This document shows positions 1 through 6,967 of a stretch of DNA of 64,000 bases, one piece after another. A program made the translations under genes and the position numbers. Under the pieces are notes generated by a model that searched no databases, was not told the origin of the DNA, and worked only from the letters and a program-made list of their open reading frames with translations. Origin of the DNA: Rhodobacter sp. GTDB taxonomy: Bacteria > Pseudomonadota > Alphaproteobacteria > Rhodobacterales > Rhodobacteraceae. Location: the NCBI GenBank assembly GCA_016704435.1, contig JADJAB010000018.1, positions 3,436 to 67,435 on the forward strand. The letters run 5' to 3'. Positions within the stretch are counted from its first letter, which is position 1. Each line of letters starts with the position of its first letter.

Positions 1-30
1 GGTTTTTGATGTCAGGCCGGGCAGCCTTCG

Positions 31-774
31 TCAACTTTTTTCGGTGGGGTCGGTGGAGCGCCGCATGGAATGACCGTCGAGTTCGAAGCGGTAAGCGTTG
101 TGGACCAGGCGGTCGAGGATGGCATCGGCGAATGTGGGTTCGTCGATGACGTCGCCATGCGGTAACCGGGAGCTGGCTGGTGATCAGGATCGAGCCTCGC
201 TCGTGGCGGTCCTCGACGATTTCCATGAGGTCCCGTCGCTGACCGGCGGTCAGGACGATCCGGACCCCAGTCGTCCAGTATGAGCAAGTCCACTTTCACG
301 AGGGATCGGAACAGGCGTGAAAGCGTCCGTCGCCATGGGCCAGTTCGAGATCGGCGAACAGACGGGGCAACCGCTGGTAGATGACAGTGCAGTTGTCGCG
401 GCAGGCTTTTTGCCCCAGCGCGCAGGCGATCCAGGTCTTTCCGACGCCGCAGGGACCGGTGATCATCAGGTTGCGGGCGTCTTTGATCCAGCGGCTGGTG
501 GCGAGTTGCTGGAACAGGGCCCGGTCCAGTTTACGCGGTGTGCGGAAGTCGACATCCTCAATAGCCGCCCCGATGTGGCGCAGTTTTGCCGCTCGCATGC
601 GGGTCTGGAACCGCCGGGTGTCGCGACTGGCGACTTCGCGGTCGACCAGAAGGCCGAGCCATTCGGCGTGGCTCAGCTCCACGGTGGCGTCTTGCGCCTG
701 CAAGTCGATGAATGCCTCGGCCATGCCGTCGAGCTTCATCTGGCGGAGCAGGTCCAGGTGGGGTGGGTCAACAT
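31..774 (-). pseudogene. istB: IS21 helper ATPase IstB with about 4 single-base indels (probably sequencing errors)
   Basis: Joining frames gives MLTHPTLDLLRQMKL...Walker A GPCGVGKT...LLILDDWG...ITSQLP...ADAILDRLVHNAYRFEL. ORF track pieces are 296-820 and 12-299. Confidence 0.88.
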
Positions 775-785
775 CGTTTGTCCTT

Positions 786-2315
786 TCAATGGAAGTAACC
801 GGGGCCGCGGATATTGCCATGCTGGATCGCGGGCCCGTCTGCGGCCGGTTCGGGCCGTTTGCGATGGAGGTTGTTCTTCAGGATCGAATTGACCGAGGAA
901 TAGGACCGCGCCCCGATCATGAGCGCCCGCTCGCAGGCTGCTTCCAGCGCCTCGGGGCCGTGCGGTTTGGCCAGGCGCATGATGCCGAGGCAGGAGCGGA
1001 ACCCCTGCTCGGGGTGGCTGCGGTCGCGCAGGATTACCTCAACCAGCGTCGCGGTATTGGGCCCGATCTTCGCAGCCCAGTTCTTCAGCCGCTCGGGCGA
1101 CCATTCGGAGTGGCGCTGATGGCTGGCCGGCATGTGATCGGCGATGGTGGTGTGCTTGCGATTGGACGAGGTCCTGGCGTGGGCGGCGACACGTTTGCCG
1201 TGGTGGAAAATCTCGACCGTCCGCGCCGTGAGTCGGACCCAGACCTTCTCCCGCAGCAGGCTGTGCGGGGCCGAGTAGTAATGCTTGTCCACCTCGACGT
1301 GGTAATCGAGGCCGACAGTGCACTGCTTCCATTCAGAGAAAACGTAGGGCTCCGCGGGCAAGGACCGCAGGGCGGATCGCTCGACCTGATTGAACAGGTC
1401 CCGGCGGCTGGCGCCGAGATGCCGGGTCACCCGGTCGTTCAGCCGGTCAAGGAGGACGCGGATGGCGGCGTTCAATTCCGCCAACGAGAAGAACCGCTGG
1501 TTGCGCAGGCGCGCCGCGATCCAGCGCTCTGCGATCTGGACGGCGACTTCCACCTTCGCCTTTGTCGCGGGCTTGCGCGGTCGGGCCGGCACGACTGCCG
1601 TGCCGTAATGCGCGGCCATGTCGGCGTAGGTCCGGTTCACTGCCGGTTCATAAAAGCAGGCCTTGGTCACGCCGGACTTCAGGTTGTCGCATACCACCTG
1701 CGCCGGGACGCCGCCGAAGTAGCTGAAAGCCCGGCAATGCGCGCCGATCCAGTCTGACAGGCTCTGGCTCCAGCTTGCCTCGGCATAGGTCAGGTTCGAG
1801 GCCCCCAGCGTGGCCACGAACAACTGCGCCTGACGAACCTCGCCAGTTGCCGCGTCAATGACGGCCAGCATGGTGCCGGCGTAATCAACGAAGACCCGTT
1901 CACCGGCAACATGGTGCTGGCGCATCACTGGCGTCAGGCGCCCTGTCCAGCGGCGGTGGAGATCGCAGAACCGGCTGTATCCATAGCCTTCCGGATGAAC
2001 GGCGCGGTATTCCTCCCACAGCAGGGACAGCGTCACGCCCGGGCGCTTGAGCTCGCGGTGGATCGCCGGCCAATCCGGTTGCGCCTCGACAAGCCGGATG
2101 GCGCCACCGATCGGATGAAACAGCAGCGCTTCCAACGCGGCGTCCGTCATCTCCGCTGCAAGCGGCCACGTGAGCGCGGCCCGTTCAATCCGCTTCAGAT
2201 ACTCACTGGCGGTGCTCTGCCCGACACCAAGGCTCGTCGCGATCTTCCGGGTCGACAATCCGCTGGCGTGAAGCCGCAGCGCTTCTCTGATCTTCCGCAT
2301 CGTCAGTCTCTTCAT
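786..2315 (-). CDS. istA: IS21 DDE transposase IstA
   Basis: 509-aa ORF with an N-terminal HTH, VFVDYAG, VVCDNLKSGV and KAKVEVAVQ motifs, and a GYFH C-terminus. Confidence 0.95.
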   Translation of the reverse strand: MKRLTMRKIREALRLHASGLSTRKIATSLGVGQSTASEYLKRIERAALTWPLAAEMTDAALEALLFHPIGGAIRLVEAQPDWPAIHRELKRPGVTLSLLWEEYRAVHPEGYGYSRFCDLHRRWTGRLTPVMRQHHVAGERVFVDYAGTMLAVIDAATGEVRQAQLFVATLGASNLTYAEASWSQSLSDWIGAHCRAFSYFGGVPAQVVCDNLKSGVTKACFYEPAVNRTYADMAAHYGTAVVPARPRKPATKAKVEVAVQIAERWIAARLRNQRFFSLAELNAAIRVLLDRLNDRVTRHLGASRRDLFNQVERSALRSLPAEPYVFSEWKQCTVGLDYHVEVDKHYYSAPHSLLREKVWVRLTARTVEIFHHGKRVAAHARTSSNRKHTTIADHMPASHQRHSEWSPERLKNWAAKIGPNTATLVEVILRDRSHPEQGFRSCLGIMRLAKPHGPEALEAACERALMIGARSYSSVNSILKNNLHRKRPEPAADGPAIQHGNIRGPGYFH

Positions 2316-2395
2316 GGGGCCGCCTGCTCTGTTTGAAAGAGCAAGCGTAGCCCGCCGCAGGACTGCCCAGCAGCGTCAGAACCTCACCCCGAAAG

Positions 2396-2490
2396 GGTGA
2401 CCGGATACCCCGGAATCGGTGACCGGATCAGATTGGAATCCCCGACCGGATCAAATCGGAATCCCCGACCGGATCACCCCGGAATGCGCA
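2396..2490. repeat. IS21 left-end array of transposase-binding repeats
   Basis: Four repeats of (t/c)gaccggat-N-ggaatc, for example ccgaccggatcaaatcggaatc and ccgaccggatcaccccggaat. Confidence 0.85.
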
Positions 2491-2586
2491 AATCACGCGG
2501 GCCGACCGCCCTCAAGCAGATCAATGGGTCCTGACCCTAGGGTATTTCTATAAATCAACCAACCGACGTGATCTGGCGGTAGTGTC

Positions 2587-3475
2587 TCAGTTTGAATTAT
2601 CTTTTTTCCGGTAGGGTCCGCGCGGCTTGGGTGCGGGTGCAGCGGCGTCAATGATCCCGACCAGCCAAGTCATGTCGTGCAGCGTCTTTGTTACGCCAGC
2701 GGCCATTGCCGGGGTCATCTTGAGCGTCTTGTGCATCCGCACGAAGTTATAATGCACGAAGTAGAGCGACAGCATGTGCAGGTGGTTTTGCAGCTTGCTG
2801 AAACCGTTGGTCAGGCGCGTGAAGCGGCGCATACCCATGCGCATGGTCAGGTTCTGGCGTTCCACATGCGACGTGCTGACCATTTCCTTAACCGGGTAGC
2901 CGCTTATCAGTTCTTTCCGCGCGCCGGTGCATTCGGCGGGGCTATACTTGCGCTCGTGTCCCTTAGCGCCCGTAGCATCGCCATACAGCTTGATCAGCAT
3001 GGCATAGTCCACATCGCCGCCGAACGCGCCTTCAACCGCTTCAAGGTAAGCCTTGTGCCCGTCCGTAGTCAGTTGGACGCGGTTTGCCAGACGGGCGCGC
3101 AGATCGTCCATGAACTCGATTGCGGTTGCGCCCGAACGGTCGCCGACCTCAAAAGACAGGATCATCTTGCTATCGCGGTCAATGGCGGTCCACGTCCACA
3201 CGTCGCCTGCACCAACCGGAGCGGATTTGGCGGTCGCCACATTCTTGTCTTTGCTGTAACAGAACGACCAGATTTCATCGCACTGGACCTGTTGCGCTTT
3301 CACATCGCGCACCGTCACGTCATGGTATGCAGCGCAAGCCTTGCCAGCGTCCTCAAGCAGCTTGGTCACTGTGTTGATCGAAACACCCGTGATGCGGCTA
3401 ATCGAACGCGTGGACGAACCCCTCAACGAGCATGTTGGAGGATGGTGACGCGGTTTTGATGTCTAGCTTGTTCAT
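2587..3475 (-). CDS. IS1-family DDE transposase (apparent indels in the first ~20 codons)
   Basis: QCDEIWSF, WTWTAID, QLTTDGHKAY and STSHVERQNLTMR motifs. The reconstructed start is MNKLDIKTRVTILNMLVEGSS at 3475. The stop codon lies inside the left IR. Confidence 0.85.
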
Positions 3476-3594
3476 GTTGATGAGATATGAACTTTATGCT
3501 TAGCGTCATATAATCACACATCGCCTTTCTGCTTGCACATAATTTCATGCAAACATGCTTGCTGTGTTCGTATAGCAAGCAGGAGTCCGCGAAG

Positions 3595-4644
3595 ATGGAT
3601 GACGACTTTCACTCTCGTGGTGGAGCGGCTCGCGCCATGCGGCTTTCCCCAGAAGAACGCAGTGCCATTGCCCGCAAGGCGGCTCTAGCGAGACACGGTA
3701 AGAAAATGCCTCATGCAGTAGCGGAGGGCACTCTGATTGTCGGAGACTTGCGCATCCCTTGCGCCGTCCTTGACGATGACCACGGCAACATGCGCGTCCT
3801 GACTCAGGAAGGCTTCCTAAACGCTATTGGTCGGGCGGGAAAAGCGAAGGGTGGAGAAGGCGCAGGGGTCGACGGGAAAGCCGCTTTCCTACGCGCAAAG
3901 AATCTAGAACCCTTCATTTCCAATGACTTGATAGTGTCGACAACTCCCATAGAGTTCGTGCCACTGCGCGGCCCTGGCTATCAAGGTCGCGCCTTTGGCT
4001 ACAAGGCATCCCTGCTACCTGATGTTTGCTGGGTGTATCAGGATGCAATGATCGCGCAAAAATTGCTGCCCAGCCAACGGCACATCGGCGAAGCATCGCG
4101 CGCCTTCCTGAAGGGGCTGACCAATCACGCTATTGAGGATTTGGTCGACCTTGCCACCGGATTCGGCGATCTTCGCAAGCGGCGCGCAATTGACCTGATC
4201 ATTGAGAAATACGTCTCCGCTGAACGTCTGCCTTACATGCAAATGTTTGATTTGGATTTCTACCGTAACGTCTACCGCTTGAATGGGTGGGCATTTGACC
4301 CGGAAAAATCCGCGCGACCCGGCGTTATCGGCCACTATACCAACGACATTTACGACCGCCTCGCGCCGGGAGTAAAGGATGCTCTACACTCAAAAGTGAA
4401 ACGGAACTCTAAGGGCCGACCTACGGAGAAGCTGACACAATACATGACGAAGGACGAAGGGAAATTGCGCCTGAAGGAACTGCTTGGCGGGGTCAAACTT
4501 CTCATGACTCAGTCACCAGACTGGCAGCACTTCAAGGTGCTACTGGACCAATACTACCCACGCTTCGGTGACACCATGCAGTTGCCCCTAGGGCACAACA
4601 TTTATGCACTGCCTCGGCCTAGCCAGAATGACCCCACCGTTTAG
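3595..4644 (+). CDS. P63C-domain protein (phage-associated) with an N-terminal basic helical motif
   Basis: AGGAG RBS at 3581. 349 aa. The C-terminal half has FDLDFYRNVYRLNGW...RPGVIGHYTNDIYDRLAPGV...KLTQY, characteristic of P63C. The CAVLDD...RVLTQEG segment is typical of these proteins. Confidence 0.72.
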   Translation: MDDDFHSRGGAARAMRLSPEERSAIARKAALARHGKKMPHAVAEGTLIVGDLRIPCAVLDDDHGNMRVLTQEGFLNAIGRAGKAKGGEGAGVDGKAAFLRAKNLEPFISNDLIVSTTPIEFVPLRGPGYQGRAFGYKASLLPDVCWVYQDAMIAQKLLPSQRHIGEASRAFLKGLTNHAIEDLVDLATGFGDLRKRRAIDLIIEKYVSAERLPYMQMFDLDFYRNVYRLNGWAFDPEKSARPGVIGHYTNDIYDRLAPGVKDALHSKVKRNSKGRPTEKLTQYMTKDEGKLRLKELLGGVKLLMTQSPDWQHFKVLLDQYYPRFGDTMQLPLGHNIYALPRPSQNDPTV

Positions 4645-4855
4645 CCGCCGCCTTCTTCGCAATCTCGGCCCGTCGCTCTGGCGTCATGCTTGCAGCGCGG
4701 GCCTTTCCGCCCTTCTTGCCCATAGCCTGAGCGGCCTTGTCCTTGCCGTCATCCTCCGGCGCGTCCTCGACCTCACCCGTGGCGATCTTGCCTATCAGCA
4801 CCGCCAGCCCCACCGCGTCGGCGGGGCGCTTTTCTCCGTTTGGTCCTTTAGGCAT
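4619..4855 (-). CDS. small basic hypothetical protein (78 aa, KGG-like motif), IS passenger
   Basis: GGAGG RBS upstream. MPKGPNGEKRPADAVGLAV...GKKGGKARAASMTPERRAEIAKKAAAKRW. This type of protein is seen next to IS1/IS1595 transposases. Confidence 0.75.
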   Translation of the reverse strand: MPKGPNGEKRPADAVGLAVLIGKIATGEVEDAPEDDGKDKAAQAMGKKGGKARAASMTPERRAEIAKKAAAKRWGHSG

Positions 4856-5005
4856 GGTGTCCTCCGTATGCTTACCGTCTAGCATATAGGAAGCGCGGGG
4901 CGATTGCGACACCTGTCAACCCCGCCCATTTTCAAACTGAGACACTACCGAGCAGCGAGGTCGCCAGTGGTGCTTCAGGGGCAGCCGAAGGTCTAATGCG
5001 GGCGG

Positions 5006-6901
5006 CCCAAGTTCGACAGTTAGCGGTAGGTTTTTGGGCCTGAGGGTTGCCTCGCTTGAGTGATTTCAATGGGTTGCGGGGTGCGCCGGTCGGGTTTGGG
5101 CGAAATCGTGTTGTAACACGCCATGATGTAAATTGCGTTGCGATACAGGCGAAAGCCGATGTATCGTTCGTCCAATGTATACGCGCATCTCAGAATCCGG
5201 CGGTCGTCGCTACCTGCAACTCGTCGAGGGGCATCGCGACGAGCTTGGGAAGGTGCGCATCAGGGTCGTCGCCAATTTGGGCCGGCTCGACAAACTCAGT
5301 CCCGGCCAGCTCGACCCTTTGATCAACGGCCTCAATCGCGCGGTAGGACGGCTCGAAAATACCGCTTCAGACATTGCCTATGAATCTTCGCTCTCCTACG
5401 GCGACGTCTTCGCCCTCCACGAACTCTGGAAGGACCTCGGCTTTGACCGCGCCCTCAGCCGTGCTTTGCGCTCGGGCCGGCGCGAGATCGATGCCGAGGC
5501 GCTGATCCGCGCCATGGTGTTCAACCGCCTCTGCGCTCCGGATAGCAAGCTGGGCTGTCTCCGTTGGCTGGAAACGGTAGCCATGCCCGCGATGCCCGAG
5601 GGCGTGACCCATCAGCATTTGCTGCGCGCCATGGATGCGCTGATGGATCATGCCGAGGTCGTGGAGATCGAACTTGCCCGTCAGATCCGCCCCCTCGTGG
5701 ATCAGGATCTGGCGATTGTCTTCTATGACCTGACGACGGTGCGCATCCATGGCGAGGGGGAGGTTGACGACGACCTGCGCGCCTTTGGGTTGAACAAGGA
5801 GACTGGCGGCATCGCCCGGCAGTTCGTGCTCGGTGTCGTGCAAACCGCCGAAGGGCTGCCGCTCATGCACACCGTTCACCCGGGCAACATGGCAGAGACC
5901 AAGACCATGCAGGCCATGCTGAAAACCGTGCTGCAGCGCTTTCCGGTGCAGCGCGTCATTCTGGTGGCCGATCGGGGGCTGCTGAGCTTTGAGAACATTG
6001 GCGAACTCACCGCGCTTGCCGATCAGGGCGGTCGCAAGCTTGAGTTCATCCTCGCCGTGCCGGCGCGGCGCTACGGCGAACTGGCTGAGACCTTCCGGGG
6101 GCTGTCTTTCTCCGAGGAGGGCCTGACCGAAGCCACCTTCGCTGGCCATCGGCTGATCGTGGCCCATGATCCGGCCCGCGCCGCCCTGCAATCCGCCCGG
6201 CGGCGGGCGCGGATCGCGGAACTGGACGCCATGGCCGAGAAGCTGGTGACACGGCTCGACGCCCAGGATGCCGGAGAGACCGCCCGGGGCCGCCGTGCCT
6301 CAGACCGGGGCGCCTACAGTCGCTTTGCCCGCGCCGTCGCCGAGGCCGAACTGACCCGCTTCCTCAAAGCCGATTACACCGCTGACCGGTTCTCCTGGGC
6401 GCTCGATGATGATGCTATTGCCGCCGCGGAACTCTTCGACGGCAAACTTGCCCTCCTGACCAACGCGCCCGACCTCACCCCCGCCGAGGCCGTCACCCGG
6501 TACAAGTCTCTCGCGGATATCGAACGTGGATTCCGAGTCCTTAAATCCGATATCGAGATAGCGCCGGTCCATCACCGTCTGCCGGATCGCATCCGCGCCC
6601 ACGCCTTGATCTGCTTCCTCGCCCTCGTGCTCTACCGCGTCATGCGCATGCGCCTGAAGGCAAAGGGACACACCGCGAGCCCGCGCACCGCGCTTGATCT
6701 GCTCGCCCGCATTCAGAAACACACCGCCCATGCCGGGAACCGATCCTTGCATGGCATCAGCAAAACCACTCCGGATCAACTCGATCTCTTTGACGCCATG
6801 AACCTGCCCAAACCTGCCCTCTGACGACCGTTGTTGTCATATTTTTGGCCATCCAGCCATAACAATAACAATCGCTTACGCGATTAACTGATGAACTTGG
6901 G
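5006..6901 (+). mobile_element. IS1634-family insertion sequence
   Basis: 17-bp IRs with 2 mismatches, CCCAAGTTCGACAGTTA (5006-5022) and TAACTGATGAACTTGGG (6885-6901), around one transposase ORF. Confidence 0.88.
5175..6824 (+). CDS. IS1634-family DDE transposase
   Basis: MYTRISESGGRRYLQLVE start, with FYDLTT, LVADRG and YKSLADIERGFRVLKS...RIRAHALICFLAL motifs. Confidence 0.93.
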   Translation: MYTRISESGGRRYLQLVEGHRDELGKVRIRVVANLGRLDKLSPGQLDPLINGLNRAVGRLENTASDIAYESSLSYGDVFALHELWKDLGFDRALSRALRSGRREIDAEALIRAMVFNRLCAPDSKLGCLRWLETVAMPAMPEGVTHQHLLRAMDALMDHAEVVEIELARQIRPLVDQDLAIVFYDLTTVRIHGEGEVDDDLRAFGLNKETGGIARQFVLGVVQTAEGLPLMHTVHPGNMAETKTMQAMLKTVLQRFPVQRVILVADRGLLSFENIGELTALADQGGRKLEFILAVPARRYGELAETFRGLSFSEEGLTEATFAGHRLIVAHDPARAALQSARRRARIAELDAMAEKLVTRLDAQDAGETARGRRASDRGAYSRFARAVAEAELTRFLKADYTADRFSWALDDDAIAAAELFDGKLALLTNAPDLTPAEAVTRYKSLADIERGFRVLKSDIEIAPVHHRLPDRIRAHALICFLALVLYRVMRMRLKAKGHTASPRTALDLLARIQKHTAHAGNRSLHGISKTTPDQLDLFDAMNLPKPAL

Positions 6902-6967
6902 TTGGCCAGATCATGACCGTTCAGTTTTTCCGGCATCACCACGTCGGAAAAGAATCAGATCAGGCCG
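6902..6967 (-). pseudogene. remnant of a response-regulator receiver domain
   Basis: With one indel the minus strand reads DLIL(S)DVVMPEKLNGHDLA, resembling the receiver phospho-Asp motif. It is cut by IS1634 on one side and the IS6 end on the other. Confidence 0.45.

Follow-up and report, generated by a model that had tools for sequence, protein, structure and literature searches.

An IS1-family transporter clade with two core genes and exchangeable cargo, represented in Rhodobacter by an element carrying a P63C-family gene

Results

In a 64,000-nucleotide stretch of Rhodobacter sp. DNA (assembly GCA_016704435.1, contig JADJAB010000018.1, positions 3,436 to 67,435; hereafter the window, whose positions are used below unless a locus is named), we analysed a compact unit of 2,372 bp that holds an IS1-family transposase gene, a gene for a 349-aa P63C protein, and a gene for a 78-aa protein between perfect inverted repeats. 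The unit is one member of a large and mainly alphaproteobacterial clade, made up of IS1-family insertion sequences (IS) with passenger genes, i.e., transporter IS. Our overall explanation is that the transposase and the 78-aa protein are the core genes of this clade, that P63C is its cargo, that a basic arm found in both the 78-aa protein and P63C serves regulation, that the remainder of P63C is an effector, and that the window copy is worn; taken as a whole, we consider this explanation likely. The defence role that it would assign to P63C follows from guilt by association, and we advance that part only tentatively.

An IS1-family element and its relatives

The unit is bounded by terminal inverted repeats at 2578-2596, on the 3′ side of the transposase gene, and at 4931-4949, on the side of the small gene; both have the core GGTAGTGTCTCAGTTTGAA, start with GGT as IS1-family ends do, and match each other perfectly. 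A repeat search of the region returned these arms as 2577-2596 and 4931-4950 (20 nt, 100% complementary) and found no second perfect pair. The transposase gene (2587 to ~3474, minus strand) is of the single-ORF type (ORF, open reading frame), and its product matches the Pfam family DDE_Tnp_IS1 at 27.8 bits (cut-off 24.1). A first-pass annotation had read the unit as an IS1-family element with perfect inverted repeats, and the ends and this match bear that reading out. The transposase of an intact relative has transpos_IS1 as its top NCBIfam match (E 1.5e-21, 77 bits, short of the equivalog cut-off of 100), and plasmid homologues carry the annotation "IS1 family transposase".

We searched the DNA of 60 related genomes for elements with the same ends and compared the ORFs of six of them. 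In several of these genomes, same-ended elements match the window at the transposase and small genes and not in between. Identity to the window in the nearest elements is 83-95% for the transposase and 88-95% for the small protein; the corresponding values are 59-75% and 41-62% in genomes G016 and G048. The middle gene encodes P63C in two of the six relatives, at only 30-34% identity to the window protein, while elsewhere among the six it encodes a 312-aa uncharacterised protein, an SDH-type ClpP-like protease, a HARE-HTH protein (HTH, helix-turn-helix), or an HTH-XRE/ImmA-IrrE protein with a 152-aa partner. An 8-bp target duplication surrounds the whole unit in all six, matching at 7 of 8 positions in G019. 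In the G016 element (L025:1028-5942), the transposase gene is split by another IS with a 425-aa DDE ORF, and one part of its cargo, an SDH-type protease, occurs in duplicate.

The inverted-repeat pair is present in 55 of 57 elements with a full-length transposase (lengths 1,768-4,808 bp). As the same 18-19-nt ends bound these relatives, the repeats of the window element are not a chance pairing. Perfect 8-bp target duplications flank 43 of these 55, and 7 of 8 positions match in 3 more; whole units, cargo included, transpose with 8-bp target duplications. In the layout of the clade, a three-helix protein of 74-81 aa is encoded just inside one end and a single-ORF DDE transposase on the same strand at the far end, with three variable segments: 82-1,879 nt from the end to the small gene, 259-2,393 nt from the small gene to the transposase, and 12-1,369 nt from the transposase to the other end. 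Only the middle slot is occupied in the window copy, by a P63C (phrog_2384) cassette. As first proposed, P63C is genuine cargo; it lies between the inverted repeats and in the slot between the two core genes.

The small protein is a core gene product of the clade

The 78-aa protein (gene at 4619-4855, minus strand) has a different standing. It had initially been counted as a second piece of cargo, a view that its distribution contradicts. Scanning a five-sequence alignment against one genome per species, we confirmed relatives in at least 463 stretches; the counts that follow concern the best 80 of these. Alphaproteobacteria or broadly labelled Pseudomonadota metagenome-assembled genomes (MAGs) account for 79 of the 80, the exception being one Silvibacterium MAG. 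Among the 76 loci with sufficient downstream sequence, an IS1 transposase gene follows on the same strand at a distance of 0.26-2.4 kb in 65, and in most of the remaining 11 the IS end still precedes the small gene. Rosmer, STAND, protease, and unclassified cargo all occur together with the small gene, which is also present where the slot is empty: the minimal element L110 (5629-7396; 1,768 bp, with a perfect 8-bp target duplication) consists of only the small and transposase genes, 259 bp apart. Because the small gene adjoins an IS1 transposase whatever the cargo, minimal L110 included, it belongs to the fixed core of the clade and is not cargo.

The small protein has an isoelectric point of 9.75 overall, with an acidic N-terminal half and a very basic C-terminal half, and its AlphaFold2 (AF2) model has three helices at a mean confidence (pLDDT) of 81. 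It has no match in Pfam, NCBIfam, or PADLOC; Foldseek against the PDB gave nothing usable, and a profile of the small protein searched against solved structures with hidden Markov models (HMMs) gave nothing. An inverted repeat, TATGCT-N8-AGCATA, lies in the small-gene leader/promoter (4867-4886, minus strand; clade consensus TATGCTTAGCGnnAAGCATA), and it is kept just upstream of the ribosome-binding site (RBS) in elements whose small gene comes immediately after the terminal repeat (L034, L051, L098; others partly). At L035:5905-8026, a small gene lies between two IS1-type ends ~2.1 kb apart without a transposase gene; this unit may derive from the clade as a non-autonomous form with cargo only.

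Exchange of cargo in the middle slot

Clustering of ORFs revealed two dominant families in the middle slot, Rosmer-type and P63C. The Rosmer type, found in 21 elements, combines an HTH-XRE + Peptidase_M78 protein with a variable partner of ~200 aa (PADLOC RmrA E 5.6e-63, RmrT E 1.1e-89, matched in 19-21 elements), while P63C is represented by 19 sequences, including that of the window, which are 25-71% identical to the window protein and occur in both orientations. Less frequent occupants are nSTAND1/AAA ATPases (four elements), SDH proteases (two elements, G016 and L070), and, in one element each, a HEC-04-like ABC ATPase (E 2.7e-52), a PemK/MazF toxin, and an MqsA-like HTH protein. A PD-Lambda-2_B match (E 4.6e-39) and AAA_21 domains are also found among the cargo of relatives, and an Abi_2 protein with a PD-T4-5 match (E 4e-12) is encoded in the transposase-to-end segment of one element (G019, L022:716-4140). 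The suspicion in the first-pass annotation that such a slot is used for phage-interaction genes therefore finds support in the Rosmer, HEC-04, STAND ATPase, MazF, and SDH protease cargo of relatives, and in PD-T4-5 in the neighbouring slot.

Two further cargo positions were observed, one from the transposase stop to the end (up to 1,369 nt) and one from the other end to the small gene (up to 1,879 nt), the latter with small ORFs whose stop overlaps the small-gene start. At L088:6341-7923, a PemK/MazF-type toxin gene lies beside a P63C gene in the same slot.

We placed cargo labels on a maximum-likelihood tree of the transposases of 54 elements. The labels require 31 changes, compared to a mean of 30.4 when shuffled; the tree tracks host taxonomy and the cargo labels do not cluster. 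Near-identical transposases accompany P63C, Rosmer, or STAND genes. The distribution of cargo types over the transposase tree is random, and the middle slot is swappable.

The boundaries of the exchanged segment are sharp at both core genes. Conservation between elements breaks off as soon as the Trp codon of the small gene is passed, and it resumes ~10 nt upstream of the transposase -35, within TTGACGCTAAGCATAAAAGTTCATAT; in an alignment of 17 elements, none is seen farther than ~45 nt upstream of the transposase ATG. Residues past the conserved ...KRW of the small protein travel with the cargo, and the ending AKPE* is common to L045 and L082, which have the same Rosmer cassette; this sharing places the cargo junction inside the last small-gene codons. 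No dedicated site-specific recombination sites were seen at the cargo junctions. The functional core ends where the breakpoints fall, a pattern that fits either recombination inside the conserved core or illegitimate joining followed by trimming under selection.

The P63C gene and protein

The 349-aa cargo gene (3595-4644, plus strand) was correctly recognised at the outset as P63C: an HMM search matched its product to PF10546 at 69.9 bits, against a cut-off of 26.1. The protein is a full-length member of this family, which is named after p63 of Myxococcus phage Mx8, and of PHROG 2384; residues 6-332 align with positions 8-333 of the 338 in the phrog_2384 profile (E 5.2e-76). HMM and structure searches had been suggested for both proteins, and they delivered these two family matches for P63C, left the small protein unmatched in Pfam and NCBIfam, and yielded no solved relatives. 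The G+C content of the P63C gene is 55%, and that of the window 65%. We recovered 919 P63C homologues at E <= 1e-5; the subfamily of the window protein is widespread at ~70% identity, and one metagenomic protein is 92% identical. Members of this subfamily are found in an IS1-type element (L112), in a Cereibacter island beside a SIR2 gene and a primase (L113), and in a prophage-like early region with an HTH repressor, GapR, and SSB (L114-L116); given these differing contexts, the P63C gene is a free-standing cassette.

The cargo might have been under relaxed selection, which the first-pass annotation had named as grounds for abandoning a selected role; selection is purifying instead. Between the window gene and that of L112, identity is 90%, 96%, and 46% at codon positions 1, 2, and 3, with a proportion of nonsynonymous differences (pN) of 0.056 and a saturated proportion of synonymous differences (pS) of 0.75. 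The ratio of nonsynonymous to synonymous divergence (dN/dS) is 0.06-0.11 in other P63C pairs, in which dS is unsaturated. As a family, P63C is functional, and the purifying selection on it is strong.

The AF2 model of P63C (pLDDT 74) comprises a basic helical hairpin (residues 5-34), a beta domain (40-137), and a helical domain (140-320). Among viral models, Foldseek matched it to p63 of phage Mx8 (E 4e-6). We found no Pfam match to Bro-N, KilA-N, or ANT domains at E <= 0.01, and, in the library searched, no literature mentioning PF10546.

A shared arm and candidate binding sites

Homology links the C-terminal end of the small protein (GGKARAxxMTPERRAEIAKKAAAKRW) to the N-terminal end of P63C (GGAARAMRLSPEERSAIARKAALARH): within the small protein, residues 44-76 match phrog_2384 positions 6-38 (E 2.2e-6), and the arm is modelled as a helical hairpin in both proteins. 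Among all slot cargo proteins, only P63C has the motif. Upstream of arm-bearing P63C genes are clusters of TGCTTGC/GCAAGCA, typically 3-5 copies within 160-170 nt (background rate 0.23 per kb), usually laid out as a site, ~12 nt, a back-to-back pair, ~12 nt, a last site, and the RBS. This array is found in IS, island, and prophage contexts alike (outside IS in L113-L116), and two arm-less P63C genes (L068, L108) are also without sites. In the window, the predicted operator array spans 3530-3581 (plus strand), with TGCTTGC at 3530 and 3556, GCAAGCA at 3575 immediately ahead of the RBS, and a degenerate box, GCAAACA, at 3549. The conserved transposase promoter block (3482-3509, minus strand; its clade consensus was given above) contains the word CGCTAAGCATA, which lies within the transposase promoter spacer across the whole clade.

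One mechanism that would account for these patterns is that the shared basic hairpin is a DNA-binding arm, as appears probable, which binds AAGCA-type sites. The small protein would then recognise CGCTAAGCATA-type sites both within the spacer of the transposase promoter and in the leader of its own gene, and would act as the regulator of the element, controlling its own expression and that of the transposase from the position that InsA has in IS1. P63C would be an autorepressor that binds the four-box TGCTTGC/GCAAGCA array of its own gene, and the rest of the protein, a putatively Bro-N/KilA-N-like beta domain with the helical domain, would serve as the effector; the company that P63C keeps points to phage exclusion or abortive infection.

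This interpretation must be made cautiously, as several points weigh against it. We infer both the regulation by the small protein and the self-repression of P63C from site conservation and co-occurrence only, and the CGCTAAGCATA word could be conserved simply as promoter sequence. The operator, whose central pair is degenerate, and the leader sites are partly degenerate in the window copy. The similarity of P63C residues 40-137 to Bro-N is weak (Foldseek E ~0.1), Foldseek against the PDB found no solved relative of P63C (all E above 3), and PADLOC-DB v2 gave no match at E <= 0.01 for P63C, nor for the small protein or a second P63C. The survey counts for the small protein, moreover, represent the best 80 of at least 463 loci.

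Condition and surroundings of the window copy

The transposase of relatives is one uninterrupted ORF of 292-309 aa. The window gene, whose product is 94-95% identical to the intact 296-aa transposase of G023/L033, is broken near its 5′ end by three 1-nt indels relative to these relatives (-1, +1, +1, at ~3425-3455), which leave an open frame of 279 aa. All three indels sit in homopolymer runs, and assembly error is therefore possible. A programmed -1 frameshift as in the classical IS1 group was considered and rejected: the relatives are single-ORF, and the breaks in the window are three scattered indels with no slippery site. In the window promoter block, the -35 is ATGACG and the spacer is 1 nt shorter than in the clade. 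No target-site duplication is present at the window copy (flanks gatctggc vs gagcagcg); a displaced one was sought past the neighbouring IS21 element, and no copy of GAGCAGCG lies beyond it. Given the lack of a target duplication, the broken transposase frame, and the weakened -35, the window copy is probably no longer autonomous, although the frame breaks could be assembly errors.

The element is present as a single copy in its 39-contig genome, between an IS21 element, whose end at 2490 is 87 bp from the IS1 end, and an IS4/IS1634-type element on the other side. The IS21-family element is complete, comprising window positions 1-2490 plus ~94 bp upstream in the contig, with the terminal repeat TGCGCATTCC... 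/ ...GGAATGCGCA and multiple internal repeats at 2387-2485; its istB frame is split in two ORFs (296-820 and 2-226), which may be a frameshift or a consensus error. The 9 nt flanking the left end of the IS1 element (TGATCTGGC) recur as a reverse complement at 6905-6913, just past the IS4/IS1634-type element; with ~0.08 expected, this is within chance, or it could be a trace of an IS-mediated inversion. Rfam searches found no RNA family within 2300-5200, and a scan for consensus promoters and terminators found nothing above shuffles.

Discussion

IS1 of Escherichia coli encodes InsA and InsAB′, with the insA repressor gene upstream and a programmed -1 frameshift, and it has GGT-starting ends and generates 8-9-bp target duplications; InsA is a zinc finger plus HTH. 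The clade described here is alike in its IS1-type DDE transposase, its GGT-starting ends, and its 8-bp duplications, and its small gene lies upstream of the transposase on the same strand, in the position of insA. It differs in that the transposase is encoded by one ORF, includes an N-terminal HTH of its own, and involves no programmed -1 frameshift, in that the small protein, with its three helices and basic arm, is unrelated to InsA, and in that 0.26-2.4 kb of swappable cargo lies between the two core genes.

Transporter IS (tIS) are IS derivatives with passenger genes inside their ends (PMC9330008). The position of P63C between the inverted repeats and the 8-bp duplications that flank whole cargo-bearing relatives agree with this definition, while the clade departs from it in having a conserved second core gene, three defined cargo positions, and cargo dominated by phage-defence and toxin-antitoxin genes. 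We found no literature on IS1 with defence cargo, and no papers on ISMhu11; the clade is apparently an undescribed variant of a familiar kind. Tn7-like transposons are documented carriers of cargo rich in defence systems (PMC8649781), and like them the clade is a transposon lineage with variable, defence-rich cargo; its elements, however, are far smaller (1.8-4.8 kb), with one transposase, no targeting machinery, and one or two cargo genes. For P63C itself, the nearest functional analogy is BstA, a prophage-encoded single-protein abortive infection system with a KilA-N-like N-terminal DNA-binding domain (residues 32-147) and a second, C-terminal BstA domain (PMC8585504), together with a self-immunity element, aba. 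P63C would likewise be a single protein on mobile elements, with a beta domain (40-137) that is weakly Bro-N-like, but it has an additional N-terminal basic arm and an operator array, and is without a PADLOC match.

Other roles for P63C can be postulated. One is a two-gene cargo module made up of P63C and the small basic protein, whether a defence, anti-defence, or addiction pair, as the first-pass annotation had it. The two genes are adjacent and convergent with 3′ ends overlapping by 26 nt, and their homologous basic helical arms could mean interaction or a common target. Yet the small gene persists alongside Rosmer, STAND, protease, and unclassified cargo and where the slot is empty, P63C lies in both orientations relative to it, and between the window and G023 the small protein is 93% identical and P63C 34%; same-subfamily P63C genes without any small gene in the L113 island and the prophage-like region of L114-L116 further speak against a dedicated pair. 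The gene distribution has already largely refuted this module, and we consider it highly improbable. Alternatively, P63C may be an accessory of transposition or IS regulation, active in target choice or in cross-control of the transposase promoter via its arm, and not directed at phages at all; it is among the two commonest slot occupants (19 of ~57 elements), and the DNA-binding-like arm is common to P63C and the core small protein. Elements lacking P63C have perfect target duplications, however, and thus transpose without it, unrelated defence genes replace it between near-identical transposases, and the same subfamily with the same operator is found in the prophage-like region and the island without an IS, all of which makes this scenario quite unlikely. 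It is also conceivable, if still unlikely, that P63C is a phage-derived antirepressor or Bro-type regulator that induces or silences rival prophages in conflicts between mobile elements, as opposed to protecting the host by abortive infection. The full-length match to a phage family with no assigned function (phrog_2384), the Foldseek match to p63 of phage Mx8 together with weak Bro-N matches, the early-region prophage context of L114 beside an HTH repressor, and the absence of a detected enzyme fold would all fit such a regulator; on the other hand, Pfam gave no Bro-N, KilA-N, or ANT match at the threshold used, the slot partners are defence and toxin-antitoxin genes and not regulators, and the evidence does not separate a regulator from a BstA-like defence role.

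A related question is whether the window copy is a dead relic, immobile and with genes that are idle in this host. The missing target duplication, the three frame-breaking indels, the -35 altered to ATGACG with its short spacer, the partly degenerate P63C operator and small-gene leader, and the single genomic copy within a stack of other IS elements are all in keeping with decay; against this, neither the P63C ORF nor the small ORF is interrupted or truncated, every family-invariant residue is kept (in P63C, R67, D185, and T188/G189 are invariant), and each transposase indel, being in a homopolymer, could be a consensus error. We regard such a relic as doubtful, though a real possibility, and the copy as an ordinary family member that is possibly dead. 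By itself it adds little, being probably decayed, and the weight of the findings lies with the clade.

Returning to the proposal of a transporter clade with P63C as a defence effector, its strongest form combines three claims. The IS1 clade would be a miniature shuttle for one- or two-gene anti-phage cassettes, whose exchange is so frequent that cargo bears no relation to transposase phylogeny; P63C, whose share of the slot is close to that of the proven Rosmer system, would be a new single-protein system of phage exclusion or abortive infection that represses itself; and the hairpin would be an undescribed DNA-binding module tying control of the cargo to control of the transposase. That all three hold jointly is possible, but we would not presume it. 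The analysis identifies an unnamed core IS protein and a DNA-binding-like arm that it shares with P63C, and it nominates P63C, an abundant gene family of phages, prophages, and IS, as a defence candidate. If the proposal is true, IS1, the simplest class of transposon, would join the known vehicles of defence genes, and this would explain the spread and turnover of small systems such as Rosmer inside the Alphaproteobacteria.

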